A DNA stretch of 59,849 nucleotides, filler included. It is 4 parts of 4 records of this genome, joined end to end, with 100 filler letters (N's around TTAATTAATTAA, not from the genome) between each part and the next. Parts side by side here need not be neighbours in the genome. Positions count along the whole stretch, not along the records: positions 22,008 to 51,559 come from DRR378314_668; 3 more parts are not named here. One strand, written 5' to 3'. Shown piece after piece: positions 8,195-43,468 of the stretch. Position 1 is the first letter of the stretch; each line of letters starts with the position of its first letter. Below the pieces are notes generated by a model, which saw nothing but the letters and a program-made list of their open reading frames with translations, searched no databases and had not been told where the DNA came from. The translations under genes were made by a program, and so were the position numbers.

Positions 8195-8221
8195 TGATCC
8201 AACCGGGCCGCGCCTTGCGTA
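8195..8221 (+). promoter_or_regulatory. sigmaE-dependent promoter of the ufa-like operon (TGATCC-N16-GCGTA)
   Basis: TGATCC aaccgggccgcgcctt GCGTA, ending 27 nt before ATG 8248, which has a GGAG RBS. Confidence 0.8.
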
Positions 8222-8247
8222 AGATCAGCAAAACCGATGGAGTTTAC

Positions 8248-15208: not shown

Positions 15209-15231
15209 CCGCACCGGTGCGCGCCTGCGAC

Positions 15232-15415
15232 GGGGGCGCTCCCGCCCCGTCCCGATGCCCCGCCCTGCCGGGCGGGCCACACGCGACGCGTTGGGAATGG
15301 CCTTCTGCCCCGTCCGGGGCAGAAGGCGCCGCCGGGCCGAACCGGCCCGGCGCTTGGCCCAACCGCAGACTGGGTCCCTGACCAGGGGCACGGTCTTGTG
15401 GGCGGGAGCCCTCCC
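15232..15415. repeat. Nested multi-hairpin intergenic element (REP/MITE-like or structured RNA)
   Basis: Outer inverted repeat 15232-15247/15400-15415 (14/16). Perfect stems 15300-15311/15316-15327 (12 bp), 15330-15339/15343-15352 (10 bp) and 15259-15265/15270-15276. TTGGG/CCCAA closing pair. Confidence 0.6.
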
Positions 15416-15499
15416 CTCCCTTGCACCCCGAACGGGTTCCGGCGAGACTGTCCCGGACGTGCCGCGCGCCCGAACGGCACCGGGAGGAGACCATCGCTT

Positions 15500-17482: not shown

Positions 17483-17539
17483 CACGGCGTCGCGACACAC
17501 CGCTGTCAGGGTTTGCACTCAGCCGTCGGCTAAGGCGTC

Positions 17540-18889: not shown

Positions 18890-18897
18890 CTGCGCGA

Positions 18898-19023
18898 TCA
18901 GTTCAGGCGCACGGAGGTGCCGGATGTGCGGTCCTGTGCGGAAAATCCTGCGCGCTCTAGCGCAAAATCCGCACCAATGGCGATCACGGCGATGAGGGCA
19001 AAGCCCGCAAACATGGCTTTCAT
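18898..19023 (-). CDS. 41-aa small membrane-associated protein MKAMFAGFALIAVIAIGADFALERAGFSAQDRTSGTSVRLN
   Basis: The ATG sits 1 nt after the upstream stop, with an AGAGGA RBS. Its stop is 8 nt before the regulator ATG. One hydrophobic helix and GC3-rich codons. Below the ORF-track size cutoff. Confidence 0.7.
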   Translation of the reverse strand: MKAMFAGFALIAVIAIGADFALERAGFSAQDRTSGTSVRLN

Positions 19024-19024
19024 G

Positions 19025-20311
19025 TCAGTTGTCCTCTTGATGTGTTGTTGCAGTTTTCAGGTAGTCTATCAGATCCCGCCGGTCGGTGGCGGCAGTGATC
19101 CGCTGCATCGGCATCTTGGAGCCGGGAATATAATGGTCCGGCCCCTGATCGAAAAGCGCATCTATGGTCTCGGCGTTCCAGAGGAAATCGGCGCCCGACA
19201 GCGTATCGGAATACCGATACTCCGCAAGACTGCCCGCTGCCCTGCCAAACAACCCCGCCAGATGCGGCCCGGCCTTGCGGTCACCCTCATCGCGCAGCGC
19301 GTGGCAGATCGAACATTTGCGCGTGAACTGGCGCTCGCCGTTGCTCATGCTGTCCGGGTTCTGCAGAAAGCTGCGCGTCTCATCGCCCACCGCATCAAAC
19401 TGCCCCATCAAGGCGACCGGCCAGCCATAGACCACATCGTGAATGCCCCCGGCCCAGATGCGCGTCCCGTCGGGCGAAAACGCCAGCGCCCAGACCGGCC
19501 CCTCGCGCATCGCGTGGAAATCGCGGGTGATACTCCAGGTCTTGGTGTCGATCATCATGATGTAGCCATGGCCATCGCCCACTGCAATCTGCCCGGTTGC
19601 CGCGTGATGGCTGAGCGCCAGGATCGGGCGACGCTCCAGGGTGAAATCGGCGATCTGTGTGCCGCTGTCGATGTCGATCACCCGGGTGCTGCCATCCACC
19701 GCGCCATAGGCCAGCCACCCTGCGTCCGAAAGGACAATGCGGTTGATGCCAAAGCCCTGCTGTGCCAGCATCCGGGGCACTGCTTCGACGTCCTCATAAA
19801 GCAGCAGCAGCCCGGTCATGGTGGCGGCAAAGAGGCGCCCGACAGTATCAAACTGCACGTCATTGACGCCCGCCCCGACTTCGATCACGCGTCCCTGCCC
19901 GCCGTCCAACGGCCAGAGACCGATGCTGCCGTCCCAGCTGGCCGAGGCCAGCCAGCGCCCGTCGGCAGAGAGATCCAGCGCGCCGATCTTGCCCGCATGA
20001 CGGCCGATTTCCTGCGCGCGCCCCTGCTGCCAGCGATAGATCACAAAGTCATCGCCGCCGCTGAACACATCACCAGAAGACCCGAAGGTGAGGGCGGTGA
20101 CCGCCGCATCATGGGCCTCCAGCCAGATCGGCCTGCCGCCCTGCCACAGCGCCACCGCATTGTCGAAACTGGCGCTTGCCACCTGCCCGTCCGCATCCAC
20201 CGCCAGCGCCATGATCGGCCCGCCGTGTCCCTTCAGGGTCACGAAGTCCGCCTCCCCGTTTGCCAGCAGGGGCGACGCCAGAAGGATCAGGCCAAGCGCC
20301 AGCCGCCGCAT
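19025..20311 (-). CDS. Periplasmic WD40 beta-propeller fused to a C-terminal class I cytochrome c
   Basis: Signal peptide MRRLALGLILLASPLLA; WD40 repeats (GHGGPI..SASFDNAVALW; LASASWDGSIGLW); CSICH heme motif; GPHLAGLFGR and PGSKMP (axial Met). Confidence 0.9.
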   Translation of the reverse strand: MRRLALGLILLASPLLANGEADFVTLKGHGGPIMALAVDADGQVASASFDNAVALWQGGRPIWLEAHDAAVTALTFGSSGDVFSGGDDFVIYRWQQGRAQEIGRHAGKIGALDLSADGRWLASASWDGSIGLWPLDGGQGRVIEVGAGVNDVQFDTVGRLFAATMTGLLLLYEDVEAVPRMLAQQGFGINRIVLSDAGWLAYGAVDGSTRVIDIDSGTQIADFTLERRPILALSHHAATGQIAVGDGHGYIMMIDTKTWSITRDFHAMREGPVWALAFSPDGTRIWAGGIHDVVYGWPVALMGQFDAVGDETRSFLQNPDSMSNGERQFTRKCSICHALRDEGDRKAGPHLAGLFGRAAGSLAEYRYSDTLSGADFLWNAETIDALFDQGPDHYIPGSKMPMQRITAATDRRDLIDYLKTATTHQEDN

Positions 20312-20315
20312 GATC

Positions 20316-21530
20316 CTACTCCGCCGGGGCTGCGCCCGTGGCCTCGGTCTTGGCGCGCTCTTTTTCCTTAACCTCCTCAAGCCAGATCGAATGGTGCTGG
20401 TGCGCCCAAGTCTCGTCCACCTCGCCGGTGCCCATGGCATCATAGGCCCCTTCCATGCCCACCGTGCCGATGTAGATATGCGCAATGATGATCGCCATCA
20501 GCACAAAGGCCACGATGGCATGCCACAGCTGCGCCAACTGCATCTCTTCCTGCGGCGCCAGCTCCGTCGGCAAGGCACCATACCCCAGCCATTGCGGCAA
20601 GCCGAGATCGTTGAGGATGCTGAAGGTCTTGGCAAAGAGCGGCAGTTCAAACGGGAACAGCAGTGACAAGCCGGAAAGTGATATCGACGCGCCAAACAGG
20701 ATCACCGACCAGAAGATCACCTTTTGGCCTGCATTGAATTTCTTTGCCGGCGGGTGTTTCTTGCCGACGATGCCGCCGAACTGCTTGATCCAGACCAGAT
20801 CGAGCTTGTTGGGGATGTTATGCGCAACCCACATGAAAAACACCATGATCAGAGCCAGCATGAAGGCCCAGGACACCGAATTGTGGATCCATTTGGAGCC
20901 GATCAGCAGCAGGGAATTCACGTCCTTGCCCAGATAGGGCTGGATCGCCACACGTCCGAACAGCGTCAACAGGCCGGTCACCCCGAGCAGGATGAAAGAT
21001 CCCGCCAGCATCCAATGGGCCAGACGCTCGATGAACTCAAAACGGGTCACGGTGCGACCGGCTTGTTCGCCGTCGACACGCACCCGCCCCCGCAGCAGAA
21101 AGAACAGCGCCAGCGCGCCGATCGTGCCGAGGAGCAGCCAACCGCCATATTGGCGCAAGGGTCCTTCGCGGAAGGTCAGCCAGCTCATGCCGCCATCCTG
21201 CACCAGAACAGTGGCCACATCGCCGCCCGCCGAGACGCGAATGTCGGCAGAATTGTAGCGCAAGGCCCGCCACAGCTCCGGGTCGGACTGGCCACCAAGG
21301 GTGCCCAAGTGCTCGTTGATCGCGGCGGCCGCGTCCGGGTTGCCGGTGGCCTCACTGCGGAATCGATCATCAATCGGCTCGCCACGCTGGCGGGCCATGA
21401 TGTCCTCCAGCGTCTGCGCCCCACCCGTCGCGCTGCGGTCGGGGGCAGTCGGGGCGGCGTCTTGTGCATGGGCCGAAAGGCCGCACATCAAGGCCAGCTT
21501 CAGCACGAATACGAAAATCAGGCGCGGCAT
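20316..21530 (-). CDS. fdnI: Formate dehydrogenase gamma subunit (cytochrome b) with an N-terminal periplasmic extension
   Basis: RF..IERLAHW, KWIHN, HPPAKKFNAGQK, LWHA, AHIYIGT and WAHQHH. Confidence 0.9.
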   Translation of the reverse strand: MPRLIFVFVLKLALMCGLSAHAQDAAPTAPDRSATGGAQTLEDIMARQRGEPIDDRFRSEATGNPDAAAAINEHLGTLGGQSDPELWRALRYNSADIRVSAGGDVATVLVQDGGMSWLTFREGPLRQYGGWLLLGTIGALALFFLLRGRVRVDGEQAGRTVTRFEFIERLAHWMLAGSFILLGVTGLLTLFGRVAIQPYLGKDVNSLLLIGSKWIHNSVSWAFMLALIMVFFMWVAHNIPNKLDLVWIKQFGGIVGKKHPPAKKFNAGQKVIFWSVILFGASISLSGLSLLFPFELPLFAKTFSILNDLGLPQWLGYGALPTELAPQEEMQLAQLWHAIVAFVLMAIIIAHIYIGTVGMEGAYDAMGTGEVDETWAHQHHSIWLEEVKEKERAKTEATGAAPAE

Positions 21531-21588
21531 GGATGGAACTCCCCGTTAAGCCGGATTTGAAAAATTGAATAGAGGGCACACCGGAAGG

Positions 21589-21608
21589 GGCCCGCCGCAT
21601 GGCGGGCC
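21589..21608. other. 8-bp GC hairpin between the fdh beta and gamma genes (possible mRNA stability or processing element)
   Basis: GGCCCGCC-gcat-GGCGGGCC; no clear U-tract. Confidence 0.4.
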
Positions 21609-21648
21609 GCCTCCTGTTGTCGGCGTGCCTTGAGAACAAAGGCCGGCG

Positions 21649-21907
21649 TCAGCCGCCCTTCTGTTCGTAGGCTGTGCCCCAGCCCCAGGCGCCGGAACCA
21701 AAGCCACGGGCCACCACACGCTCACGATAGACCGAGGATACCACGTCCCCATCACCCGCCAGGAGCGCTTTGGTGGAGCACATCTCGGCGCAGATCGGCA
21801 ATTTGCCTTCCGCGATCCGGTTGCGCCCGTACTTCTGGAACTCGGCCTGCGAGTTGTTTTCTTCGGGACCACCGGCACAGAAGGTACATTTGTCCATCTT
21901 GCCGCGG
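21649..21907 (-). CDS. fdh3B: Formate dehydrogenase Fe-S beta subunit (FDH3-type), 5'-truncated by the contig end
   Basis: KMDKCTFCAGGPE..KYGRNRIAEGKLPICAEMCSTKALLAGD. Confidence 0.9.
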
Positions 21908-22007
21908 NNNNNNNNNNNNNNNNNNNNNNNNNNNNNNNNNNNNNNNNNNNNTTAATTAATTAANNNNNNNNNNNNNNNNNNNNNNNNNNNNNNNNNNNNN
22001 NNNNNNN
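21908..22007. other. Artificial contig spacer
   Basis: N-run, TTAATTAATTAA, N-run. Confidence 0.98.
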
Positions 22008-22033
22008 GAGAGAGAGAGAGAGAGAGAGAGAGA
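22008..22033 (+). repeat. (GA)n microsatellite at the contig start
   Basis: Read directly from the sequence. Confidence 0.95.
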
Positions 22034-23964
22034 ATAGTTTTACTCTTCTGTTATTGTGTTGCGCTTTCATTCTCGAGGGCGACACTCATCTCTTTGCCGT
22101 GGAGCTACATACTGTCGAAGGCGGGGGGGGGAGAGGAGGGGCCACCGTGCCACTTCATAGACCTAGAACACGATCACGGGCGCCCCACCTCCTTCGCGCG
22201 CGCATTCTCCCGCTTCAAACGCACCTTGCGTCATTACGACAAACCCCACGAGAATAAGAAAGCAGATAATCTGCCATTTGTATTCCATGATAGTTTTTTT
22301 ACGGTTACCTCCGTAAGAAAGGTCGTAAAGGATGACGAAGCTCGCGCGCTCGAGCTGCCAGCTCACCTCATCCACCGCGCACTCGGATCAGCACGAGGTT
22401 CGTCCGTTACACACGGCACCCCCCCGGTACAAGCTCCCTTTCTTGCTCTTGTTGTGCCGTTCTCTTCCAACGGTATGCAAGCGCGATAACACAGTCTGCA
22501 AAAATTTTGTGTGACATATGCCTGTGTTTGGCATGCCACGTGGAGCTGCGTGTGCTAGCGGAGAGGTACGCGTGCGTGCTACGCGTGGAGGAGGGAGCGC
22601 TCGGTGGGCCGTTGGGGGAATGCGAGCTAGGGGGATGCGCACGGGGAGCGGAGAGCAAGCTGTGCAGATCCACAGCCAGGCAGACGCTAGGGTTCAAGGA
22701 TTCTATCCTTTATGCACACCGTATCCAATCTACGCCGAATATCGCCTCTGGCGCCCAGAAGTTGGGGCGCTTCCGCATGCTAAAACAGAATAGGAGGATG
22801 AATCATACCAGTTTTTCGTTTTGCTTTTTATTGCGCCCTAGGAAGAAACCTCGACGGAACCTAGGGGTACCAAATCAAAACAAATCAAAACATTGGGACT
22901 GAACGTACGCATTCTTTTCGCAAGACGAGGCGCGCGCGCGCGCAATCTCGTCTTTCTTGCCAGGATACCATCGCAGGGGTTAGGAGGGCCTTGAGGCCAC
23001 AGCCCTACTGGACACGGAAACATAAAGAAAGATCCGGTACTTGCACTCATAAGACAGGCTGGCTTTTACCCGCATTCCTCGGGGAAAGAGGTCTAGAACA
23101 GCCAGAGCTGCCCTAGGACAGGTGCCACAGGGGAGCTGCATTCTCCTGCTGTCGTCCAGTTCAAGCATATCCGTCACAGAAACGGAAACCCGTGCTTCGA
23201 TTCTTGCGCAGGGCGTAAATGATCCATACTTTTTCGGAGATCACGGTTTGTGTCTTTGGTTGAGAGGGATAGACAGCAAGGTTGCACCAAAACAAGCAGC
23301 CGGACCGGAAATCAATTGTACACCCTTCTATTCCTTGCTTCTCGGCGATTGTTAGCTACGGGATATAAATCAAATCGATCGTCTTGCCTGCGCTCCACTT
23401 TGACGACGAAAGCATGCGCTAGCCAAACTTACTTGCCAGATCAAGCTATTCACAGGACCATAGCGAGTATCCATGGCATGGCATCCTATTGTGTGTTTTG
23501 TGTGCGTCTTTGTCTTTCTCGTGAGAGGGGCGGCAGCGAACCAAACCAACGGATACGACATTACAGAAATACTGTCCGTCGCGGTGAGGTGGCAAGGGAA
23601 TACTTTATTCGTAGTGTAAACAAATCGCGCGCACGCACACATGCACCTTTGCACCACTGCTATCAAATAGCATGCGCGCCTGCTCCCTTTTCGTTTGCAG
23701 CAAGGACCGTCTCTACCAAGCCCTGGTCAGAGCAACGGAAAGAAAAATCCTGCAACATTTCGCGGCCCCTTGCACCGCCCCTCCCAAAAACCAAAACCAC
23801 GAATACCGCGCGAATGCCAACAAGCACTGCCACGCAACATATTTCCACTTCACACACGCCACAATTCTGGTTCTCGTTTTTCTTCTGACAATGCTGAGCT
23901 CGGTTTGAAACCAAAACGCAAACCAAACCCCCAACACGCAAGTGCGCGCCGCTCCTTGTCAACC

Positions 23965-26900
23965 TCACATCTGAGACCGCTCGGAGCTCGTCGGCGAAAA
24001 CATGCCTCCGTTTTCCGCAAGAAGCCCTCGCGCCGAGCCGATCCCCCTCGCTGCCCCGAGCTCCGAGCGACTCTCAAAACCGGTGGGAACGTCGACGCTT
24101 GGAGAGGCGTGTACTTCTTGCGCGGCAGGTGCGCAAAGGTCGCCAAGCTCAACCGCATCCGTTTCCCCGCCGCTCGACGTCGCCCCGGGCTTTGCAGCGT
24201 GACGACGGTGTTCCTTAATGCCTACCATACGCAGAACGGGGCCAAATCGATGAACAATGGCTTGGCGCGCGGCAGCGCTGCTCCACAGCCCATAGAGCAA
24301 AAGGACGAAAAACGGCGAGCACTGGAACATGATCAGGACCACGGCGGCGCCGTCGTCGCTTGGCTCGACAAAGCCGCCTGCGTACGCCATTCCGAAGAAA
24401 AAGTTGAGAAACTGTACAAGGAGAGAATAGGTTTCAAAAGCATTCTTGTCGCGCTCTTCATACGGCGCTACAATGCCATGTGCAAGCAGCATCGTCATCC
24501 CGACAATGGACGCGGCAAACACCTGTTTCGACGCCGCGACGAAGCCAACGACGACCCACAAGAGAACCTTGTGGAAGAGTCGCACCAGTTCCCAGAACCA
24601 GAGCCCATCTCGAAAGTCTACGTACAGCGTTCCGTACTTTGCCTGCATTACTTCGGTGTCGAGCCGATCGCGCTTTGCGTACAGCTTCCAGATGAGAAAC
24701 AAGGGTATGCCAAAAGTCACAAGTACAATTGCTACCGCAACAAATACAGTATAGCCTTGATACTCTGACGTTCCGCATTCGATAGAATAGTCCGCTTTCA
24801 GATACTGAACACCTTCGATCGTACGGCAGTTGAAAAACGCAAACGCCTTGCCGGTGACGCTCGGGTACACCAGCAGCAGCAGCAGCGCGATGTTCTTTGA
24901 CAAATTGCGCCGCGCCACGCGACCGTCGAGCCCCGTGCGAATTTGCACAACGTGCCACACGTACAAGATGACGGCGAGAATGATCGGGAACACAAGCGCA
25001 AACACAATTTCCCCGTAAAATGACGTCGAGACCAGACACGAGAATGACGAGAACCGTAGCAAGTCCAGCTTGAGCACCGCCATGGCAGACATTGTATCGG
25101 AGTACGACTCTGGCCAGACAACCTCGAACTCCTGCGCAAGTGTCGACGCCTGAACGAATCCAATCAGAATCTTGGTCATTGACACCCACTTTTTCGACTT
25201 TTTCACGTTCTCCGTCGGACGGAAGATGCGATAGCCAATAAATGAGAGCGCAAGCATGAACAAGATCACGATGGCAGTCGTTTCACTGGTGCCAAGGCAC
25301 TCGTAGCAGAGGTACCCGCGTCGGAAGTACCCATCCGCGCACTCGCCGCATGCGACGCCACCGTACCCGGTCGCGCACGCGCTTGTATCCGACGCATTCC
25401 CAGCCGAAAGCGCCGCAGTGCCGCCGGCGCACGCCTGTACAATAGCGCATGTGTAAAACGAGAGCGAGGTCTGCGAAGGCCGCCAAAATCCGCGCAGCGG
25501 CTGCATCGACCTAAGACTGGTGCCGGGCTCCGAGCAATCGGCGCCCGGTGGGCACGCGGCGCACGTCTGCGAGCCTGGCGCGCCGTTGTAGTGCCCCAAA
25601 GGACACGGCGAGCATGCAAACTGGCCCGCGCTGCCAGCAATAGTCCCCGCGGGACACACCCGGCAGTTCTCGAGTCCGTACGCATCGGCAAAAGTCCCCG
25701 GTTCGCACTCCGCGCAGAAAGGTCGCCCCGTCGTGTTCGCCGCCGTCCCAGGAGAGCACAGCTCGCACTCTGTGCTTCTGAGCTGGCGAGCGAACGTTCC
25801 GGGCGCGCACACTTCGCACACAGACGCGCCGGACGAATTACTAAACTTTCCGCGTTCGCACGCGACGCACGATGACTCCTGGGCTGTACCACTGCTGCTG
25901 TTGGCAGAACGCTGCGTACCGGGACTGCAGGGAGTGCACGCAGTTGCGCGGTCCAACGCTGTGAATTCGCCCGCCGGGCACGGTGTGCACGCCGTAGCGC
26001 CACTCACGTTCGAGTACGTCCCAGTCGCGCACGCAGAGCACAACGGAACCTCCGTCAGAGCAAAATATCCAGGCGCGCATGCCAGCTCCAGCGGCGCTAC
26101 AGCGGCGGGAGGCGATGGCGCCGACCCGCCACTCTCGACCCAGACTTGCAGTGAGAATGTGCCGAAAACGCGCGTGTCGTTGAGCACGCACAGTGCCGAC
26201 GACAACGACGCAGGACTCGCCGACCGGTTCACTTGCACAATCTCGCCAACGAGCGACTCGACAGCCGCGGACGCGCTCCCATTGGAAGCGCTGCATCGCA
26301 AGACCGGCGCCGGCACTCGGTGGGCCTGCCAGAGCAGATCAACGCACACCACAACGGTCGCCGCATACTCGCTGCGGCCGCTGCCGACGGGACTTGGCTG
26401 CTCTACGCGCGCCTGCCCTGTCCGGGCGCCGCACAGCGACGCATTGGCAACTCCCGGTAGCGGCATGACATGGACGGGGGAGTTTGTGAGATTCGCGCCG
26501 CCAGACTGCGTCCACGCGCGGATGGAGTACGGCACCGTGTCCCAAAACGTGACCGTCAGGCCGTTTGCGTCCGCCGCAACTAGTGGCTGCTTGCGCGCCG
26601 CGCTGCACCCTGCGCCATACGCAGTCTCATTTCCGCACACAATAGCATACGCAAACGAGTCGGCACCGAGTCCACTCACGTCATAGCGCACGGGATGGCC
26701 AGCGAACACAGCGTCAGTGCCGGTGAAAAGCGTAGGCGTTTCCACGGCCCCGGGAAGAAGTAGCGCGGGAAGATCCGCAGCGCCTTCGTCAATTGTGCTT
26801 CCGTTCGCGTGCGATGGCGGCAGGCGCGTCCCCACACCCACCGCGCCAAGCTCACCGCTCGCACTAGGATTCTGCACGGATGCAACGACAAGCTTGAACG

Positions 26901-29900
26901 CAGCGCCGTCCACGCTAATAGCAGCGCTTATGTGCGCCTCAAACGAGCGCGGTGACAACACTTGCACACTGGCAAGGGCAGAGAGGTTCAGTGCAACGTC
27001 CGCGGCGCGGAGCGACGAGATGTTATAGAGAGCTGGCAGCGTGACAACAAAGGCACCGCCCGCAGGCACGGGGTTCGTCAGCACGCCCGTCACCGTAACC
27101 GTCGCGGTACTGCCCACAGTGCGATTCGACAGTTCCACATCCATGGAGGCAATCTCTCCGGCAGAGACAGCAAATCCCACAGTGGCTGGAAACACGTCGA
27201 TCGCGACCCCTCCCGCGACAGCGGTCAGCGACGTCACAGCAAATGTGCCCACGGATGCAATGCTGTACGGCGGCAGCGTCAGGTTGGTGAAGAGGAGCTC
27301 CACTGCGCCGTTCTCGCCTGGCACTGCGGGTTCGCTGTACACCTCTGCAGGTGTTGCTGCGTACGACACGTTTGCACCTGCGTCGCAAGGAGTCAGCTGC
27401 ACCGAGGTGTTACCGCCCGCAGGCTGCACGAGCGTCGTCGACGTCCGCACCCCACGCACAGCCACCGCAGCCACCGCCCGCTGCGCCATACTGTCTTCGA
27501 AAAAAGGTGCAAACGATAGCGAAAAGGCACCGTTCTGCGGGACAGGATTCCGAGGGTATAGCGCCACCGACAAAAGGCACGATGCGCCAGCGCGCGGAAC
27601 CGGGCACGACACCGAAGGCGCCGCCGCTGTGCCCGCCGCAAGCGTGCTAAGCGCAACCGCGTTGCTCTGCAGAACCAGGACCCCGTCACTGCGCGTTGAG
27701 AACCCCATGGCGAACACACCAGGCACTCCAGACCATGGCGGCATCACAACGTTGCATAGACCACCGCGCAATGTAGCGTCTTGCGAGATCGTGTGATTAA
27801 CGCTGCAGTGCAGCAGCAGTGCCGTGCGCCCAGCAGGAACAGACGCGGAACACACAGTCTCCATCGCCCACTGCGCAGCCGTCCCGTTGTCCTGCTCCAG
27901 GGCCAACGATACACTGTCTGCTACACCGCTGGGCACCGTGCAGAACGGCGGGAGAGTAAACGTCACCGTGGTCGGTTCAAACACCGAGCGCTCTGGCACT
28001 GCGGTAAAGTTGATGCACCCGCGAGCCCCAGCGGACACGGGCGACGCTGGCACCCCGCCTGAAAACGCAAGCTGTCCCACAGCAGTCCCGCACACAGGCG
28101 CAAGCGTCTGTACGGCGCCGATTTCAATATCCAGCGAGGCGTTGCTCCACGATGGTGCGCCGGCAGCAGCGTACCGGCCGTTGGCACGCGAAACCGTGAC
28201 CGATGCGCCGTACAGGCCTCCCGAAAAGTTCCCATTCGACCACGAAATGCTCGTCTCGTTCACCACGCGCAGCATCGCTACCGCCCCAGACGAGCCGTTC
28301 TGCGGATGCCCCAACACAATTGTGCTAGCATCCAGCGACATGTCTGCAACGTACGGAGCAGACGGGAGCTTCATGTAGTCGACAAACTCCCACGCCTGCG
28401 TGCGCCCTGGATCGCGGAAAAACGCCACGCCCCCTTCTGCACCGGCAACCAGTATCGTGCCAAGCTCGTTCAACGCGACGCCATACCCGAAGCCGCCGAG
28501 CGCCGCTCGCGCCGCAGAGGCTGCCGCTGGGAGCGCCGTCTCGTTGAGAACCACCGCATCTGCGGCGTTCCACGTCCCGTCGCCACGTTCGCGCAACACA
28601 CCAGCGCCGTGCACATGGAGACCCCTCCGGCTAATCGCAAGCGTCCGCCCGTTGCCACTGAGCGAAACATCAGTATACTGCCCAGGCGCGCGCGCGAGAC
28701 GCACGGCGCCGCCCTTTGTCCTAAGCAGGCCACTCAGCACCGGGCTCCACGAACCGCCATCGAAGAGCACGTCCCAGTAGGGCCTCTCTTGGACATTCTC
28801 CCGCGCGCGCAAAATAGATATAATCGCCTTGTGCGGCGATTGCCCTGCGGTAAGGAACGCAACCGTTCGCCCACTGCTGTCGCACCACACCCCACTGCCC
28901 GCCGAGTTGATCGTCGCGCCCTCGGCGGCAACAAAGTCGTACTGCCGAGTCGTGTTCTCCATCCATCTGGCCGAAACGCCGTCGTACTCGTACACATACA
29001 GCACCCCGTGTGAAGATATTGAACCGCGCGCGGTCACATACAGGACTGTCGCGTCCTCCGAAAGCGCAACAGCAAACCCAAACCACCTCGGCTTCAAGCC
29101 GTCCCTGGGAATAAACTGCACCATCTCCCACGCAGACACCGTGCCGTTGGGGAAGAGCGCGCGCCGAAACACGTACGCCCCCGAGTCTGCACCGCCAAGA
29201 TCTCCCGACCCGGCAACGGCAAGAATAGTGCCGTTGCCGTTAAGGGCGACATTCTGCCCAAACCCAACACGATATGTCGCAATCGCTGGCAACAGCACTT
29301 GCGCGTCCACGCCTGCGCCGCTCGCCGCCACCGTCGTCCCGTTCTCCTGGCACGACGCCGTCGACGCAGCGCACAGCAGGCCATCGCCAGATGTACCAAA
29401 CGCACACTGGCACGCGCGCGAACCAGCCGTATTCGTGCACAGCGCCCCGCTAGCGCACGGTGTGGGTGCTCCGGGGGCGGAACTCGCAGAGGCACACTCG
29501 TCACTGTCCACGCAACCGTCACCGTTGGTCGCACGCACATATCCACTCGGGCAAGTCCGCGCGGCGCGCTCGCTCGGAGAGCAAGCGGACTGGCACTGCC
29601 CGCCCTCTACCGAGCACAGCAGCCCGGCGTTCGGCGTGCAAGGGCACTGCAGCTCTTGCGTCTGTACCGCTCCAACATCCGAGTCCAAATCAAGCAGCGT
29701 GCCCGGTGCGCCAGCGAGCGCCGCCGTTCCGTCTCCGCTCAGCGCCAGGGACGCGCCAAAGTACGAGTTCGGGCGGCGGCTGCTGCCAGCCCCAAACGGG
29801 AGCAGGGAACCCAGGGTGCCCGATCCCGCGCCCGTCAGCGCAAACGCTTCACCTCCGCGCAGCGACGTTTCGCTGTCCTGCGGCGCGCCAAGCACGGCGA

Positions 29901-31842
29901 GCGATCCTTGCCAGTCGATAGCGGCCGTATATAGGACTGTGTCCGATACCGCGTATCCCGTAAACTCCCAGCTGTTGTGTCGCCCATTGTCGGACAACAC
30001 AACGGCGCCTCGCTCCCCTCCCAGGACCATGATGACCCCAGCACTGTCGAGCGCGACACCGTAACCGAGCTCGCCAACTGCAGCCGCGGCTGTGGCTGCA
30101 CCCGACGCGCTTTGCGCGCTGAGCCATCCGGAGGTCAAAATCACAATCCCCGTTTCGTTCCAGTCGGCGGTACCCAGGCCACCCGCAGCTGCCATACGCG
30201 CGACCAGCACGCCAGACATGCCCGCGTGCCGGCCCACAGCAACGCTTCGCCCGTCCCCGCTGATCGCCACATCGGTAAACGTTGCGGGCTCGCTGCTGTC
30301 GCGTACATTGGCAGACGTAGAGTACCCTTGCGAAAACAGCGCCTGTGTAGCTCCCGCGCTAGGCGCATCGAGCCATGCGCCGAGGGCAATGCCCAGACGC
30401 CAAGTGACCGTGCCGTTGGTGTTCTGCAAGTGGAACACGCCGACGGCCGCGTCCCTCCCGGTCCCATTGTTCACAGACCCGAGCACGGCCAGCGTCTCGC
30501 CGGACGAGCTGCTCCACACGCCAGCCGCACCAGTGGCCAGCGAAGCCGACGTGTTGTACAAAGGGATGTTCAGCGTCAGGCTTGGGACCGCGAGCCACGT
30601 GCCGTTGCTCGCGCGGTCGTACACAACGACTGTCGCATTGGCTCCGCTGGCGTGCGTCACAAACGCGCGCAGCCCGGCGCCGTCTAGCGCAACGCCAGCG
30701 CCAAATACCCCAGTTGCCCCGCCAGCAGAGAGCGTCTGCGACAACGCCCATGCGCTGGACATTCCATTCGCATCGATATCACGCGTGAAAAGGTACACTT
30801 TGCCGTTCGAGGACAGCGGCGCGCCCACTCCAGCAACCGTCCCATTCCCGCTCAGCGCTACTGCCTGGCCGAACCGCAGGTTGGGCACTCTGTCACTACG
30901 CGGTGGGTACGTAGCGCGGGCGAGCTGCGCCAGCACAGCAGGCGAACCCGCCGCACCTGTGCCGCACGGGACAGTCCGGACGCACACGGTGCCGTTATCA
31001 GCATACCCGTACCCGCACTGACACAAATACGAGCCGTACGTATTGACACAAAGCGACGAAGCAGGACACGCGCCGCTTCCGCCGGCGGTACATTCATCCC
31101 TGTCTACGCAGCTCCCGTTCGCCGACGATACAAGCCAAACGCTCCCCGACGCGCTAAACGGGCTCGGGCACACAGCCTCTTCCCGCGCAGCCTCGGCGCC
31201 AATCGCAGGGCGTGTACACGTTTCAGACACATACGTGATCGAAATACGAATTGAAGCTTCGCCGAGTCGAGACACATAGCACGAGCCGGTCACGTTGACA
31301 AAAACGCTGGCGATCCCGCCGACGGGCACCGTTACCGAGAGCGAGCCGCCCCCAGCGACGGCTGAAGTGTTGGTGCAGTTCGTAGACAGAGGCTGCACCT
31401 GCGAACCAACATTTGCCAGTTCAAGAAGTGCGCCAATCTCCACCGCGGAGCTCGCAGGAACAAAGCCAATCGATGTAACATTGATGCGAATACCGCGTTC
31501 GCTCCATCCGAGCCGGCGGTCCGGCGGGCACGCTGCGGCCGCGCCAGTGCACGTTTCGGCCACGTCGCACTCCCCGGCCGCAGGCCGGCAAACGGTGGCG
31601 CTGGAGCGAAACGCGTCCGCCGGACACAAGTTGGAAACCCCATCGCATACCTCGGACACATCGCACGGGCCAGCTGCCGCTCGGCAGACAGTGCCAGCGC
31701 CAAGAACGGTTCCGTTACTGCCACAGCATCCACCACTGGTACAAGACGCCGCAGACGCGTGCGGAATCGCATGCGCATTGTTCGCGCACGCTGCGCTGAG
31801 GAGCAGGCTGGCCGCCAACACAACCCAGCCTTGCCGCGGCAT
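23965..31842 (-). CDS. Intronless ~2,625-aa cell-surface protein: signal peptide, tandem disintegrin-like repeats, 2x(Ca-EGF plus FG-GAP beta-propeller), beta-rich stalk, GCC2/GCC3 Cys repeats, multipass TM domain
   Basis: 7.9-kb open frame. [38 protein letters not shown] and [37 protein letters not shown] and [17 protein letters not shown]; repeated FG.AVALS.DG...GAP; repeated C..C..G.F/Y; about 8-9 TM helices with [10 protein letters not shown] and KYGTLY..FR...WFWE. Confidence 0.9.
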
Positions 31843-32714
31843 GGAGCGGGCGTGCCTCGGAGGCTCGGCACTCCGGCACATGTTCCGTTAGCAAACAGGG
31901 CGCCAAGTACGAGCGCTTGGAATAGGACGCAATCTAACCCACGCTACAATCAATCCTTGAATCAACTTGTTGAGATAGTATGATGCCAGCGAAAAGAGGG
32001 GTGGGACGCAGCCAGCGCCCTGAAGGGCAAGAGGCGCGCTGCAGCTGTGTAGCTCCCTGAAACTAGCTGGTTGACGCGCGGTTCCAGCCTTTTCTCCCCC
32101 CTCTTGCACGCGACTGACACTATTCAAGTACCTGAGCGCTATGCAACTGCCCCCGCGCGCGGGGAGAGCCAGCTCCCCATCCGACCCTATCCCAACGCCT
32201 CGTGCAAGAAGGCTCAGGTGACCAGGTATGCCCTTGGGTAGACGCTCAGCACAACCTCGCCGGCACGCACAACCTCTGCTGCAGGTCAGCGCACACGCTT
32301 GTGCTCGACCACCTAACGCTCCTGCATTGACGCTAAAAATTCTTGCCCATGCGCTTCTGTAATGCTAAACTCGTCAATCGATTTTCGCATCAGTTTGCAA
32401 TGACCATAAGCTCTCCCGAGAAGCAAGCGTCCGGCGTGCGCCTGGCTGAACGCACGCAGTGCACACAACGGGGTACGTGCGCAACGAAGCCAGCTCAGCG
32501 ACACAGACGGCAACACCTCGTGCAGTCTACGCTCAGACTTGGGCGCGCCGCCCTGGCGTGGAGCGTGCGGGGCCGAAACCTCCGACCCGACTGTGCTAGC
32601 TTTGGGGCGTCGCTCCCTCCTCGCTACGTCGCGCGCACCACGCCCGCCGCACTAACTGTAACGTAGAGGAAGTTATATTCCCTCCATATATAAATGCATC
32701 TGTTTGTCCAAACA

Positions 32715-35700
32715 TCAACTGAGGTAGCGGTGTAGAGGAAGGGATCGACGCGAAGCCCGTGCGCAAAGCGCCGCACGTGCGCCGCGGTCTTCGGCTGCCA
32801 ACTGCCGCTCGACACCAAGCTCGACACTCCCCACCGCTCTGGCCTTGTCTTGCGTGATCGCCCCACTCAATGGGCCTGAGAAGTACAAGAAAATGGTAAT
32901 CACCAAGTATCTCTCGTGACTGTGAAAGAGAGGTTGAAGAGGTCGCTGCGCGTTCACTCAGTAACCCTCCCCCAGGCGAGGCGATCCGCGTCGGAACTGC
33001 ATCCTTGCTTCGAGCAAGCAAGTGCCAGATCGAGGCAACGTAAGCGCTCGGTGTGGTGGGAGACAAGCACTAGCACCTAGCCAAACCGGGCGCTTGTTGC
33101 GCGCACCGTCTCTCATCTCTTCTCCCATCTCATCTCGCCCGTGCCCCAAAGAAAATCGCCGTCGCCATACTGTTGGTCATCTCATAGAGACGCTGTGAAT
33201 ATATTGGGCCATAAGCCCCGAGTGCTGCAGCGTGCGCGCCGTAACAGCGTGCTCCCTTGGCATTCTCGCCATCACGTCGAACGTCGGCAGCCACGAGCAT
33301 GCTCGCGTACGCAGACCTATGCCTAACCCTAAATGAGAAATGCAGGGCCGCGACTCGCCCTGCCTTGAACGGCACCAACGCAGTCGTGCACCCTTTGCAG
33401 CGCCAGGAAAGCGACCAGCGTGTCTTTTGCACGTCCTAAATCTTCTTTTCTTACGCTTGACCATGAATTAATGCTTCGCCAAATAGGAAAGGCAATATCG
33501 CTGTGTACTGCACCAGACTGCTGCATACGACGCGCCCACGCCTGCCGGAGAGAAGCGTGAGCACCTGCCTGAACTCCCTACAGTGTTTTTCGAGGGAGTT
33601 CAGCGAAAGCACAGCCACAGGAAAGTTTCCCCCTGCTCCCACACACGCAACGCAGCAGCAGCAGCCATGAACAACAAAGATTTCTTCACGTCCTTGGAGT
33701 CTATCTACGAGCGGCTTGAAGAAAGCGAGTGCTTTTGTGGAGGAACAATTCAGCTCGAGCTCGGCGACCGTCGCATGTCCGCCAAAGCACGCAAACCACG
33801 CACTGCGCGCAACCCTTCCGGTATGACTACAGCGGCACAGCCGCTCGGTCATCGCAGTAATGATACAAATTGTGCTGAAATTACGATCCTGTGATGGATT
33901 TAGGCCAGCGTCAGACACAAAGTGCCAACCGGGCGGATATCTGGTACAGAGAAGCAGCTCTGTGAGACGGCCCTCTGCGCCAGTAGCAGCTCGCACTGGA
34001 GCACACCGCTGGCTGACGGGTACGTACTGATACTTCTGCACCCATGTTGCCCAATACACAGCGGAGCACTCCCCATCAACAGAACAACAAGCATGGCGTC
34101 TACGTAAGGACACGTTGCAGTGGAAGTCGGAGCCGAACCGGATATCGTGTGGGCGCGACACACCAACCTCTGCCGCGAAGCGCTTGGCGCCACGCAGAGC
34201 GCTGGCAAACGGAAGCAGCAGCAGGCGGCACGCGGAAGACAGAATGTACGCAGATCGCCCTGTATCTGAAAAGGTAAGCCATACACGGCGCCATTTGCAA
34301 CACGATTATATGCCTCTTGTGCTCAAACAAACGTAGCACGAGATCCATGGCGTGTATCTTCCACATGGATGTGCGAACCGCTGACCTTTCGCAGCGGGGG
34401 CCGGAGAGTAGCACGAGTATCCAGGGTCAAGGACTTTGCACTTTCCATCCGGTCTCATCATACGACATTCGCAAACTTTATCGCATCCATTCACAATGTG
34501 TAAAGTACATTACTCGCTCTAATGAAATGCCAAGGCAAGCTGTCTTCCCATGACCTCTGCAGCAAATCAACCAACCCATGGGAGAAAACCGGGGCAGCAC
34601 TGGGAGCGGTACGCGATCGCAGCGCCTCGCCGTCCCCGCAAAGGCGAAACGGTGATCCCGCGCCAAAAGGGCTCCGACCTTTTAATCACAGCAGCACGGG
34701 TCTCCTTGCAAACATCAATCTCATCACTCCATACCATACAAAAGTCGAACACTGACATATTTTCTTGGTTACAATGACTTTCAGATCACGAGTCGCCGTC
34801 CCTGTCTGACAGAGGAGGATACGACGAACCCGACCAGCGCAGTATGAACGTGCTGTACAGCCGAAAGAAGCCCTCGTCCAAGGTGCGGCTGCCACAGAAA
34901 GCAACATGCTCCGTCTCCTGCTCGAAAAATTTCACCATGTCCGGTATTGCAAACAATCAATGCTCTATTTTATAGTAACAGCAGTCGCATCGGAAATAAC
35001 ACACTGCGTGTCTGCTCTGTAAGCGAGAACTGCAGCGCCAAGAGGTCCCCGATACCGGTTGCGAGTGCGGCGGCATCCACCCACCCGATGAGAAGGAGAG
35101 AAAGAAAACGTCGCACACTTCCGCCTTCAAAACCAAGTCAGCGCACCATACAATGTGCATATCATGTAATAGCGGCGGTCTCACTGCCTATTGCGTACCA
35201 CCAACGTAACATTCGTGCAAGCCAGGCCTTGGCAACACAAACGGTTTTCGCAATCGAGAAGCGCCTGCGAACAGTGACGAGCCAGCTAGTAGGTGCGTCC
35301 TCCAACTATTAAGGGAAAACCCGTTCGCCACCTTCGCCCTCCCCCTCTTCGCGCTGCTGCTGTTACAATAATGCAGCGGGTAAGACTGTATTCAAGATTC
35401 CGATGTAAGCAAGGCGTGTTGAGCACCTAATATTCGCTGGATGCCGCCTGTCCTCGTCCGAGTGCCGAGCGGCCACGTTCGCTCGCTAGTGACAAACTCG
35501 TCTGTAAATGCCTGTTCCCGCATCATGCGCATGCAACTTCTCTGAGAATATTTCCACTTGTATTTGTATTCAACTCTTTATATCGTGCAATACGACAAGG
35601 AGCCCCGCAGTGGTGCGGGCACCGTGCCACCCTTCCGCCAGAAGAAGCTTGCAGAGACACGCGAGCGCTTACCAGCATAGCTTCCGCTGCCCACTGGCAG

Positions 35701-38700
35701 TCCTTGTTGCAAGGAGAACAAGACGGTTATGGATTGATCGACTTTTTCCGCATACATAGAATTAAACTAGAAATGGATAACTCCTTCCTTCGATTGCCGT
35801 TGCGGACGCGTGAGCAAGCGGTAGTCCGCGAGAGTGGGATGCGTCTCGTCGCGCGCAAGTTCGTGGGTGTGGACTCTGCGTCCGGCACACAGCTCATGGG
35901 ATATAGCCTCTCCGTTCTAGACGCATTTTATCCGTGTAGACTCTACGTTTGGCAATGATAATAATAATCATAGGTGCAGATGTTCTGTCCTCGACACAGT
36001 TCATTGGTGCAGACTCTGCATTTGGCGCAAAGTTCACGGGGTGTAGACTCTGCGCCTTGGAGCACTTTGCGCAGTGCACTGCTGCACGCTGGCAGGCGCG
36101 ATCTCCACCGCAACGTACCTGTCTGGAGTGCATACAGACGCTTGCTCGTCTTGTAGGCGTTTCTGTATTGACAAGTATCTCTTGCGTTGTCTAAAGAAAC
36201 TCGCGTAGCAAATTGCGTATGCATACGCAGAGTCTGCCTCCGCCTTCCTTCCCACTGCACGCAAGGCAGACCTCGGTGCAGGACGCAAGGTTTCTTCACG
36301 CGGTGCATCGTGGCCGTGAAACATCGCAGCGCAGCACAATCGACTGGCAAACACTCGTAACGACTCGTCACTCTCATTGGTTTACGATCAAATGCAAATA
36401 ATTTCGATCAGCTGACAAATCGCGGTGCCCGCGTTCTCGTTCCCCGCCCTTAGAAGCATGTGTGCTTCTCCGGGAGGGACTTGCTTGCTGCAGGCCCCGC
36501 AAACGAGTTGACACAAGCTCTTTCAGGTGCGCGCAATGAGACAAAGCAAAGCGAGCTGAGTAGTAAGCTCTTCGTAAGAAGATGTCAACCCCGTCGTAAG
36601 TGTCGGCAACCTTGTGAAATACTTCTCGTATGCCCGCGATCGCGGATTCCAATCAGTCACCGCGACGAGCACGCAGCTGAACACAGCCATCCCGGCAACC
36701 GGCGCCAGACACGCGGGGCAGAGGAGTTATCATCGCCTAAACCAAACCTCTCGCGCAGCGTTCCAATCGAGGTTATTCGAATGCGCGCTTTATCTATGCA
36801 AACGTAGAATCCAGAGGCCTTTCCATGTAGAGTATTACTGACAAGGTGACGACCATCGTCCGCAATACTGGCCCTTGGGAGTCTGCACTGTCACCATCTT
36901 GTCCAAAACTGCATGCGAGCATTGAATTTATACACAGCGTACTGGCTTTCGCATGTTCCTTTTTCTAGGAATAGAATTCCTGTCAGAGAGGTTCAAGCGC
37001 CATATTTGCTCAACAATTGCACATCACGCGGGTTCCATGCCCTGTGCAGCGTGCCGAGGCGACGGGAGCGCCTGCCTGCACCTCTCGCTCCTTGCGACGG
37101 TCCACTTGGTACTTTTGCTTGCTCTTTTGCGTGCGCTCACACCTGCACACGCGCGACTCGTACCAAAACGTTTACCAGGTCACACCAGCGCCGACACGGG
37201 GTCTCAGTCCCAGTACAGGCAGCGTACGTATCGTTTCGAACTCTCGCTCCACAGGCAAGCCCCAGGCGGCTGGGTGCTCTGCGCGACGGCCTCGTCGCAC
37301 TTGGGGACGCAATCAAGATCGCTTCGCAAGAACACAGCCGAGTAGACGCCCTTGTCCGTGACCGAAGTATTCGTGCGTAGTATGGGTATTGCTGACATGA
37401 TCGCACAATGTGCTGGATGGACGTAGGAACCAATACAGAGAGGCTGCTGCATTACGGTTTTCTGCAGAAACGCGTGCGCTTGCAAGCCTCGGTCACACCG
37501 CTCCCTTGAGCTCATGACAGCTCCAGGTCTTACTCTATAGATTGGCGCGAACGAGGGCATGCATGTTTCAGCACACGTAGTTTCATGACGTGTCGGAAGC
37601 GAACGTAAGCGTTAACAAAGCATGGTTTTATCATTGCATGTACTCCGTGTTGCTGGAGGCGGACACGATTCCTACAGCGTAAAAAGCGGGCCTCGCTGCC
37701 TGCGCGGCACGTGCTGGGGAGAAAGCGGGAGCACCCATTCCTTTCTTAGCAGCAGGAACTATGGGGCCGCCGCGTCATTCCTTCCACGCGGTCCAGCGGC
37801 GATCCGTAGAGGGAAGATGCGACTACGGGCATCATGGACTGATGAATACTTTCTACCTGCACAACCATTTGCATTTTCGTCGCAATATGGTGGAGCGAAC
37901 TGTGCGTGTGCAGAGGGCTGGTATCATTCGTCGTCATTTCTTTATGCCACACCATGGCTACTCCATAGCAGCCCGGCCGCGGATCTGCAGCAGGCAGACA
38001 CGGCGTGTATTGCAAGCGTATCATTTCGTACTCCAGCTGTACGCTTTCCGCGCGCAATGCACCTGCGCTGCTCGAAAACGAATCAGATATAAAACACATG
38101 TGCCACGCAAAATACAACAGATAGGAGAGCGGGAAAAAACAGAGTAGCGTACGCAACCGGAGTCCTCCCAGTGGTCGAGCAGGGAACTTGCATATGAGCG
38201 GGGGGTGCAGCGAGCGCGCACGGCTCCACGACGGCAAACTCCCGCATTGTCCCATCTAGCGCTTCCGCATCTCCGCCAGTCTCTACAAATACAAGTGGCT
38301 CGGGAATTTGAACACTCGTCGAGTAATGTCCGTTTCTCTCGCTTGGCATATGATATCTTGCATGAAGCGGAATGGATACGGACAACCGCCAATACGTGTC
38401 TGTACCAGGGCCGCCATGGTCGTCCTCTCGCCTGTGGCGAGTGCGGGATCCGCCAGAAGGGATTCCTTCCCATCGCGTCACACGCGCATGTACAACTGCC
38501 TCGCTTGCACTGAGAGAAGAAGAGGGAGACTCGAGATCAACATTGGTTCCCCAAAAAACCGAAGCTGTCGTATTGTACTGCCTCTGCGACACGGTCATGC
38601 GTCCTTCATTCGCCAGCGCGCTCAGCTCGTAAGGAGACGCGTACGCCTGCGATGAACACGCACAAATACATCAAAACGCAACGCATAACCCACCAAACGC

Positions 38701-39028
38701 CGTTCGTAGTTACACTCACGAGTCACCAAACTCCGAGACCATCTCATTCCCAGCAGCCATCGGAATACTCAAACACCAGTTTCGGTAGCGAAAGCGCGAC
38801 GGAAACGCTCGCAAAGTCGCGCGAACGCACACTCGGAAAAGAGAAAGACCTCAACACGGTTAAGAGTAGGGGTTGGAATACAATCGGCTCACTACGCGCG
38901 TGCGCGCGACAAGTTTGCTGCCGAAGACTGCCACTTGCAGCAATCGTCCAAGCACCACGACCCTTGGGGCCAAGTATCGCAACAGTCGTTCGACAGAGAG
39001 TGCTCACGTACGAAAACCCACGGTGCAT
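32715..39028 (-). pseudogene. Possible decayed multi-exon MFS (TetA/HIAT1-like) transporter gene; limits approximate
   Basis: Collinear fragments in different frames: LPKLVFEY (~38770), ASVFWG (~38550), CDAMGRNP (motif A-like, ~38470), DIAFPIWRSINS..GAVQG (~33490-33365) and GAYGPIYSQRLY (~33200). No clean spliced frame was found. Confidence 0.35.
35852..36060 (+). repeat. Degenerate tandem minisatellite, about six copies of a ~33-bp unit
   Basis: Units such as AGTTCGTGGGTGTGGACTCTGCGTCCGG, AGTTCATTGGTGCAGACTCTGCATTTGG, AGTTCACGGGGTGTAGACTCTGCGCCTTGG and ..CGTGTAGACTCTACGTTTGG. Confidence 0.65.
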
Positions 39029-43400: not shown

Positions 43401-43468
43401 ACATCCGCGCGAGCTGCGCGAACCACGGACTTCATCATGCGGCATGCTGTACCATACATGTAAGCTCC

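Follow-up and report, generated by a model that had tools for sequence, protein, structure and literature searches.

Gene model and integrity

The window, that is, the whole 59,849-base stretch of DNA that was analysed, contains four contigs, and one of them, contig C (22008-51559), entirely carries a giant open reading frame (ORF). Its predicted product joins an ectodomain of disintegrin-like, epidermal growth factor (EGF)-like, beta-propeller, and cysteine-rich modules to a membrane module of nine transmembrane (TM) helices. The coding sequence lies at 23965..31881 on the minus strand and encodes 2638 aa plus a stop codon in a single 7.9-kb exon. A stop codon is found two codons upstream of the first ATG, and the ORF is free of N and of spacer sequence. 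The initial annotation of this DNA had reported one uninterrupted ORF, which is what 2638 codons inside one contig with no N amount to. It had also placed the start at 31842; this is the second Met (M14), an alternative start that yields a canonical signal peptide, but the first ATG lies at 31881. Read from the translation of the longer form, the signal peptide occupies aa 1-38 (31768..31881, minus), with a hydrophobic core and then A-H-A.

Codon usage was even over the head, stalk, and membrane parts of the gene (G+C at third codon positions, 0.61-0.73), and NCG codons were favoured, unlike in the bacterial contig B, where the preference was for NCC. In the public run X1, five collinear contigs covered 23628-32114 with three mismatches and no joints; one of them, of 5165 nt, began where the Cys-rich rod starts, took in the stalk and the two propellers, and reached as far as the first EGF. 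X1 contigs gave no cover at 22008-23607 and 32408-34000, and no inference was drawn from it. The support that X1 contigs give to a single contiguous gene is partial. No sequence identical to the giant protein (P0001) was present in a collection of 15 billion proteins.

A eukaryotic microbe is the source of the giant ORF, which is a genuine gene, intact and in a single exon. By its sequence, the encoded product is a predicted type-I-oriented, N-glycosylatable surface protein of 2638 aa, and the ectodomain makes up 83% of it. The cytosolic tail (23968..24279, minus; aa 2535-2638) is basic beside the membrane and then of low complexity; it had no phmmer relative among 176 collected proteins and no recognisable signalling domain.

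Domain architecture of the ectodomain

Two disintegrin-like repeats (31507..31788, minus; aa 32-125) stand at the N-terminus. They matched Pfam Disintegrin in two stretches with 65.2 bits (cut-off 35.1), and the second carries the ECD loop motif. Among PDB sequences, the region matched the disintegrin-like domains of atragin (3k7l, E 4e-4), catrocollastatin, and echistatin, and the alignment preserved the Cys framework. A linker domain without a Pfam match follows (31117..31506, minus; aa 126-255), and part of it (aa 130-186) resembles aa 1558-1616 of the stalk at 39% identity (E 0.004).

Two calcium-binding-type EGF domains were recognised. The first (30964..31116, minus; aa 256-306) begins DRDEC and scored 28.1 bits with Pfam EGF_CA (cut-off 27) over aa 260-300; its PDB sequence matches were the calcium-binding EGFs of NELL2, ADGRE5, uromodulin, and fibrillin. 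The second lies with a Cys-rich EGF-like segment at 29350..29646 (minus; aa 746-844) and matched EGF_3 with 33 bits (cut-off 28.5, aa 808-837), EGF_CA with 18.8, and cEGF with 16.1 bits. The calcium-binding pattern DxDEC...CxNxxGSxxCxC is present in the translation of both.

Between and after the two EGF domains lie two FG-GAP_2 beta-propellers. Propeller 1 (29656..30894, minus; aa 330-742) scored 27-31.5 bits with Pfam FG-GAP_2 (cut-off 23). Propeller 2 (28102..29286, minus; aa 866-1260) reached only 13.8 bits, below that cut-off, but is a paralogue of propeller 1, to which it aligned by BLASTP at 31% identity over 428 aa (E 2e-31). A blade hidden Markov model (HMM) recognised five blades per propeller, and the spacing implies seven in each; the model had been seeded on eight blades, which match by construction, so that one extra blade was found per propeller. 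The Ca-binding motif DxDxDG had one loose match in propeller 1 (DIDANG, aa 368) and none in propeller 2. When a profile of both propellers was searched against solved chains, none was matched at E<=10.

The stalk comprises about 670 aa (26080..28089, minus; aa 1265-1934), is rich in A/V/S/G/L/P/T, and matched zero Pfam families at E<=5. It contains a weak internal repeat of about 100 aa (aa 1377-1473 versus aa 1533-1631, 27% identity, E 5e-6). The beta-rich character given to the stalk in the initial annotation is supported by this composition and repeat only. The Cys-rich rod that follows (25534..26079, minus; aa 1935-2116) is built of Ephrin_rec_like / TNFR-like repeats, with ten CxxC pairs at 17-residue spacing over aa 1948-2110. 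Pfam Ephrin_rec_like scored 79.8 bits here in seven stretches (cut-off 23.1), TNFR_ELAPOR1_6th 56.4, and NCD3G 45.3, and the PDB match was the mastigoneme protein Mst1 (8tx1, E 4.3e-18). Next to the membrane, a juxtamembrane Cys-rich element (25297..25449, minus; aa 2145-2195) carries the consensus CxxGxxGxLCxxCxxGY of alignment A1, which holds 48 members of the membrane-module family described below; the element is conserved throughout that family. DUF7630 scored 14 bits (E 0.058) in the giant protein and matched 12 of the 48 aligned members.

The modules named in the initial annotation were thus largely recovered, with coordinates agreeing within a few codons. Its calls of disintegrin-like repeats, both EGF domains, the first FG-GAP propeller, and the Cys-rich repeats all reached Pfam scores above cut-off, and the second propeller was borne out as a clear paralogue of the first, despite its FG-GAP_2 score of only 13.8 bits. 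A failure of the modules to match their profiles, which the annotation had named as a reason to give up its reading, was not seen: Disintegrin, FG-GAP_2, EGF_CA, and EGF_3 were all above their Pfam cut-offs.

The nine-helix membrane module

The membrane module lies at 24280..25290 (minus; aa 2198-2534). Hydropathy alone gave eight clear helices, and the AlphaFold2 (AF2) model added a less hydrophobic helix after TM1, so that the earlier count of eight to nine helices with a cytosolic tail resolves to nine, with the N-terminus outside and the C-terminus inside. The model (m9d9422cff76f; 24172-25464, minus), built on A1, had a predicted local distance difference test score (pLDDT) of 88.1 and a predicted TM-score (pTM) of 0.85. 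In this topology all strongly basic loops are cytosolic, and 44 of the 45 NxS/T sequons of the protein lie before TM1.

Three Cys residues that are invariant in the family (aa 2282, 2352, and 2369, or C143, C213, and C230 of A1) are all extracellular. An extracellular Asp, a Pro in TM5, and the Leu, Glu, and Lys of a cytosolic-side motif are near-invariant. That motif reads GFLYxxY...WE...RK in the family, with E292 and K299 conserved in at least 90% of the 48 sequences; the version in the giant protein begins YGTLYvdF.

Foldseek searches of the model against the PDB gave zero matches at E<=1e-3; the best rows were taste G-protein-coupled receptors (GPCRs) with a TM-score of 0.17, led by 7xp4_R (E 0.076). 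With VIA-align, run on 48,161 chains, the highest Z was 8.7, for an 84-residue helical hairpin, which is in the range of helical background. The sequence profile of the module matched nothing in the PDB better than E 0.021. No solved relative of the module, neither a transient receptor potential (TRP) channel nor a GPCR, was found in the searches run, which is not proof of a new fold.

When two copies of the module were folded together, the median score was 0.50 (0.48, 0.50, and 0.50), and the highest of three controls scored 0.00. Contact agreement between the runs was at least 100%, and the partner pLDDT was 71. The mark used for a dimer was reached by 21 of 30 proteins whose solved structure is a pair of one and the same chain and by none of 23 solved single chains; among eukaryotic proteins, the counts were 17 of 29 pairs and 0 of 30 single chains. 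The predicted interface is symmetric and is formed by module residues 312-319 and 356-366 (aa 2451-2458 and 2495-2505), at the outer ends of TM7 and TM8. The modelling supports a symmetric dimer of the membrane module.

A large family shares the rod and membrane module

The membrane module (aa 2140-2570) was searched by phmmer against 1.84 billion cluster representatives at 50% identity. There were 9241 matches at E<=1e-3, 2737 at E<=1e-10, and 17 at E<=1e-30, with about 24-35% identity. The matched proteins were 198-5923 aa long and carried the module mostly near the C-terminus. The closest relatives reached phmmer E-values down to 1.9e-43 at 27-33% identity and profile E-values down to 1e-100. 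Top matches came from Mantamonas plastica, Lapot gusevi, and Rigifila ramosa, and the named family members span CRuMs, Rhizaria, stramenopiles, ciliates, and green algae. A word-based search found the 3105-aa protein FNF31_00420 of Cafeteria roenbergensis (P0002), with FG-GAP, TIG, VCBS, and PF06011.

Neighbours in a language-model atlas, which are taken as leads only, included clusters labelled 'TRP C-terminal domain-containing protein' and clusters with Ephrin_rec_like plus TRP. They came from green algae, haptophytes, cnidarians, sponges, and ciliates and were 75-100% Eukaryota. In one neighbour cluster (Ephrin_rec_like 72%, PF06011 11%), the commonest recorded phylum was Nucleocytoviricota.

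PF06011 was matched by 27 of the 48 aligned family members at E<=1e-3 (best E 2.1e-11); the match in the giant protein itself had E-values of 1.7e-5 to 1.4e-4. The cassette that holds the membrane module, described below, is distantly related to the fungal PF06011 proteins of Flc/Pkd2 type.

Long relatives were sought with a profile, and 31 were found at E<=1e-5. Their ectodomains included TIG, LNR, I-set Ig, TIR+GPS, RCC1, FG-GAP/VCBS, ANF_receptor, beta-helix, and DOMON domains. In the protein P0032 of Rigifila ramosa, Ephrin_rec_like, DUF7630, and the membrane module are preceded by filamin, GEX2-type Ig, and discoidin domains. Varied ectodomains are thus set on one unit of rod, juxtamembrane element, and nine helices, and this unit is therefore a common cassette with an interchangeable head. 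The pattern, as read from sequence, suggests that the cassette is a general receptor chassis. Other combinations seen were TIR+GPS (P0180), Notch LNR in Blepharisma (P0179/P0181), Cupin_8 (P0030), and ANF_receptor, a periplasmic-binding-type ligand domain (P0193/P0197).

In the literature on PF06011, judged on titles and the starts of abstracts, protist giant receptors were not found. No papers were found for IPR010308 or DUF7630, and a search on protist ephrin receptor-like/TRP transmembrane proteins gave only canonical TRP work among the matches listed.

Bacterial relatives of the head and novelty of the combination

Altogether 188 distinct relatives were examined, seven from the word-based search, 150 from phmmer, and 31 from the long-profile search, with shared matches (four plus two) counted once. 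The full module combination was absent from all of them. By phmmer, the disintegrin, propeller, linker, and stalk segments were not shared by any of the 157 membrane-module relatives (7 + 150). Precomputed Pfam matches placed FG-GAP (PF01839) in two of the 31 long relatives and FG-GAP_2 or Disintegrin in none of them.

The search with the head (aa 30-1270) returned 19 proteins, 18 with Disintegrin and 10 with both Disintegrin and FG-GAP_2; neither Ephrin_rec_like nor PF06011 occurred in any of the 19. The clusters that were named (4 of 10 looked up) were all bacterial and belonged to Myxococcales, Myxococcota, and metagenome-assembled genomes of Pseudomonadota, with one MYXO-CTERM member. Relatives of the propellers were faint and limited to P0023, P0027, and P0011.

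A metagenome scan found 80 loci that matched the disintegrin repeats only, at up to 77% identity, and the ten longer loci that were sampled had prokaryote-like ORF cover. When the propellers, stalk, and linker were compared with the 80 loci by tblastn, zero matches were obtained. Long gapped high-scoring segment pairs that reached aa ~300 were considered as orthologues and rejected, as they look like Cys-repeat artefacts. In the bacterial proteins P0010 and P0013-P0026 and in loci L001-L080, disintegrin-like arrays run to about 20 copies at a spacing of about 32-64 aa. Such bacterial arrays often occur with FG-GAP_2, RHS, Kelch, or MYXO-CTERM and are abundant in metagenome contigs.

The modules of the giant protein are all of known families, and only their full combination was not found elsewhere. 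The initial annotation had regarded the architecture as unlike any described protein. As far as the 188 relatives go, this stands for the full combination; however, the cassette family is huge, P0002 pairs FG-GAP with the same membrane module, the combination of disintegrin and FG-GAP_2 is common in bacteria, and protist proteins with FG-GAP and EGF have been published, according to the available text of PMC13524835.

Surrounding contigs

Three spacers of the form N44-TTAATTAATTAA-N44, at 6652-6751, 21908-22007, and 51560-51659, divide the window into its four contigs; the spacer is a six-frame stop linker. Because the window consists of separate contigs joined in this way, gene adjacency across the spacers is meaningless.

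Contig C ends on both sides in (GA)n/(CT)n. Its other ORFs had no meaningful Pfam match, it contained no tandem repeats, and no Rfam match was found in the window; the approximately 19.5 kb beside the giant gene (32000-51559) was accordingly devoid of all three. No paralogue of the giant gene was found within the window.

Contig A (1-6651) carries a PP2A B56 regulatory subunit at 581-3173 on the plus strand, spread over two reading frames (profile positions about 202-261 and 317-390). This arrangement implies introns in the source organism, in contrast with the intron-free 7.9-kb gene. Contig B (6752-21907) encodes a ChrR-type cupin, an amine oxidase, a cyclopropane-fatty-acid synthase, MFS_2, DUF3833, two short-chain dehydrogenases/reductases, a Cache-HAMP histidine kinase, a sigma-54 NtrC-type activator, a WD40-cytochrome c fusion, and cytochrome b561. 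Long ORFs covered 0.94 of it, versus 0.48 of the whole of contig C. Its gene content and density mark contig B as bacterial, and it is probably from an associated or contaminating bacterium within the protist assembly. The remaining contig, D, spans 51660-59849.

Proposed function and alternative explanations

We give a probability of about 0.5 to the reading that the giant protein is a dimeric contact or adhesion receptor, in which the nine-helix module would turn contact or tension into cation (Ca2+) entry and then into a local exocytosis or cytoskeletal response. The head would bind a surface ligand on prey, on a substrate, or on another cell. The stalk and the disulfide-rich rod would carry the head well away from the membrane and link it to the nine-helix module, which, paired as a symmetric dimer, may convert contact or pulling force to a cytosolic signal. 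The signal we favour is entry of cations (Ca2+), which could lead to local exocytosis or cytoskeletal responses; it is favoured because of the Pkd2 result and the genetics of the cysteine repeat modular proteins (CRMPs), both given in the last section. The same logic has been proposed for the CRMPs of apicomplexans and ciliates. The predicted ectodomain is best read as that of an adhesion or contact receptor, and this half of the earlier proposal, an adhesion receptor coupled to a channel-like membrane domain, is sensible. The other half fared less well: the TRP/Flc-like label leaned on a PF06011 match below threshold, and no TRP fold was matched in the searches run.

Several points weigh against this proposal. 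Beyond the architecture, everything in it is what we infer. The PF06011 score was 21.3 bits when the whole giant protein was searched, 24.3 with the segment, and 25.3 with the module, against a cut-off of 28.5, and the match is confined to TM5-TM9 (aa 2371-2536; profile positions 228-403 of 426). Proteins named as CRMPs were absent from the 31 long relatives and from the atlas rows, where no aimed sequence comparison was made. The dimer prediction ran without an alignment, and among eukaryotic proteins without an older solved relative only one of seven reached the dimer mark. The AF2 model of the propellers, made from a two-sequence alignment, was poor (pLDDT 43.6), and its Foldseek rows are a weak hint: they were generic 7-bladed propellers, and none of the top 50 was an integrin. 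Finally, the gaps between the X1 contigs at 26049-26124, 31282-31288, and 31514-31569 are unbridged, and X1, whose kind (RNA or DNA) was guessed, may be the source sample itself.

The main alternative, which we hold to be rather unlikely, is that the protein is a passive adhesin or a surface-coat or glycocalyx protein, in which the nine-helix module would be a mere anchor or a trafficking ('escorter') device. The ectodomain, 83% of the protein, indeed consists of adhesion and structural modules only, Mst1, which the Cys-rich repeats match, is a structural protein of mastigonemes, and no signalling domain can be recognised in the cytosolic tail; an escorter role was also raised for CRMPs in the part of the source available (PMC9815656). 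A single helix would be enough for anchoring, however, whereas the nine-helix module is the most conserved part of the protein over thousands of relatives, with invariant extracellular Cys, other near-invariant residues, and a confident, distinctive fold. This conservation and fold therefore indicate that the module has a function of its own.

A bolder version of the contact-receptor reading appears decidedly unlikely to us. It would make the protein a chimera, with a Myxococcota-type bacterial adhesin head of disintegrin repeats and FG-GAP_2 propellers on an ancient eukaryotic cassette, serving a free-living predatory protist in prey capture as a contact-gated Ca2+/exocytosis trigger. It would be the free-living counterpart of the CRMP with which apicomplexan parasites sense invasion, and its nine-helix module would be a new signalling fold that is dimeric, mechanically gated, and without a solved relative.

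We regard as very improbable the idea that an integrin-alpha-type head gates a tetrameric TRP channel of the six-TM-plus-pore kind. The presence of FG-GAP repeats and the weak PF06011 match, shared by 27 of 48 family members, would agree with it. Against it, no ion-transport or PKD-channel family was matched in Pfam, the confident nine-helix model had no Foldseek match at E<=1e-3, and a dimer was predicted, although a tetramer exceeded the size that could be modelled. The integrin-alpha-type label of the initial annotation was not upheld, since the repeats are of FG-GAP_2 type, DxDxDG is essentially absent, the propeller profile matched no solved chain at E<=10, and there are no thigh or calf domains and no single TM helix.

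An artefact, be it a chimeric assembly join, a contaminant bacterial gene, or a decaying pseudogene, is extremely improbable: the window does join four contigs, one of them (6752-21907) clearly bacterial, the closest disintegrin relatives (57-77% identity) and the disintegrin plus FG-GAP_2 combination are bacterial, and three short gaps between X1 contigs are unbridged, but the 7.9-kb frame is open without spacer or N, its modules are ordered and complete, its codon usage is uniform and unlike that of the bacterial contig, contig C has low long-ORF cover and (GA)n/(CT)n ends, and the membrane-module relatives are eukaryotic where named, with atlas clusters of 75-100% Eukaryota. Codon usage, eukaryotic membrane relatives, and the open frame led us to reject both an assembly chimera and a bacterial origin of the ORF as a whole. 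As for the chimeric join that the initial annotation had named as a danger, contig mapping revealed no joints over 23628-32114, with the three gaps left unbridged.

If the contact-receptor reading holds, the giant gene would exemplify how protists swap adhesive heads on a common membrane cassette in large contact receptors. Of the two, the cassette is the more important object, with thousands of clusters, a confident fold, and almost no experimental annotation.

Comparison with known systems

The giant protein resembles integrin alpha in its FG-GAP-type propeller repeats. It is unlike integrin alpha in that the repeats are FG-GAP_2, DxDxDG is nearly absent, and there is no context of a beta subunit; the integrin thigh and calf legs had no Pfam match in the giant protein, which has nine TM helices versus the single one of integrin. 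With ADAM and snake-venom P-III proteins it shares the disintegrin Cys framework and an ECD-type loop. Metalloprotease and ADAM Cys-rich domains had no Pfam match at E<=1 in the giant protein, and its disintegrin repeats, unlike those of ADAMs, stand directly after the signal peptide. The ion-transport (Ion_trans) and PKD_channel families likewise had no Pfam match at E<=1, and no TRP or PKD chain was among the Foldseek or VIA-align rows for the membrane-module model.

The Myxococcota-type proteins (P0013-P0015, P0017, P0018, P0020, P0022, P0023, and P0026) combine the same two families, FG-GAP_2 and Disintegrin, and their disintegrin repeats are 49-68% identical to those of the giant protein. 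They differ in that long disintegrin arrays come after the FG-GAP region and in that they have neither the Cys-rich rod nor the nine-helix module. In Pirsonia diadema, 445 'integrin-like' genes were described, with FG-GAP and EGF, lengths up to about 2680 aa, and a variable number of TM helices (PMC13524835). By that description, the Pirsonia proteins are like the giant protein in being protist membrane proteins with FG-GAP and EGF; Disintegrin, Ephrin_rec_like, and PF06011 are not named for them in the portion of the text seen (PMC13524835). Whether the Pirsonia proteins are ancient or came by bacterial transfer is left open by the authors in the same portion (PMC13524835), and the bacterial affinity of the head modules described here bears on that question, whether protist 'integrin-like' proteins are ancient or bacterially acquired.

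The fungal PF06011 proteins (Flc1-3, Pkd2, and Aspergillus TrpR) are distantly similar to the giant protein over TM5-TM9. As far as the text seen goes, their length is about 700-800 aa and their head is an ML-like TRP_N domain (PMC9600462), and they have neither the Cys-rich rod nor a giant ectodomain; in the giant protein this head (PF14558, PF02221) had no Pfam match at E<=1. Cryptococcus Flc1, with a TRP_N head and PF06011, affects calcium homeostasis, according to the available part of PMC9600462. Schizosaccharomyces pombe Pkd2 is described, in the available part of PMC9727806, as N-out/C-in, and when reconstituted it passed Ca2+ on membrane stretch.

In their membrane module, nine-helix proteins with Ephrin_rec_like, DUF7630, and a PF06011-like region (P0002, P0032, P0028 of Mantamonas, and P0179/P0181 of Blepharisma) are homologous to the giant protein. 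Like it, they have the module placed C-terminally and carry the invariant Cys and the juxtamembrane Cys motif, and P0002 and P0196 also have FG-GAP; they differ in their ectodomains, which are TIG, filamin, LNR, Ig, TIR+GPS, and others.

The likeness to the CRMPs in architecture is by description only. The published text available gives CRMPs a large Cys-rich ectodomain, with modules of Ephrin-receptor-like and EGF-like type, and a conserved core in which two EGF-like domains are combined with nine TM helices, N-out/C-in; a near-symmetric TM heterodimer was predicted, and homologues occur in Dictyostelium (PMC9815656, PMC9670195). CRMPs are required for rhoptry discharge in Toxoplasma and for mucocyst discharge in Tetrahymena, as reported in the same portions (PMC9815656, PMC9670195). 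The giant protein fits the printed CRMP architecture at every point described. The differences, again within the text available, are that CRMPs carry Kringle, MAR, or lectin domains and the giant protein instead carries disintegrin and FG-GAP, and that CRMPs were predicted as heterodimers, not homodimers, whereas the module of the giant protein passed as a homodimer. If the module is the same as that of the Toxoplasma and Plasmodium CRMPs, its free-living relatives would be simpler systems in which to study the path from contact to secretion.

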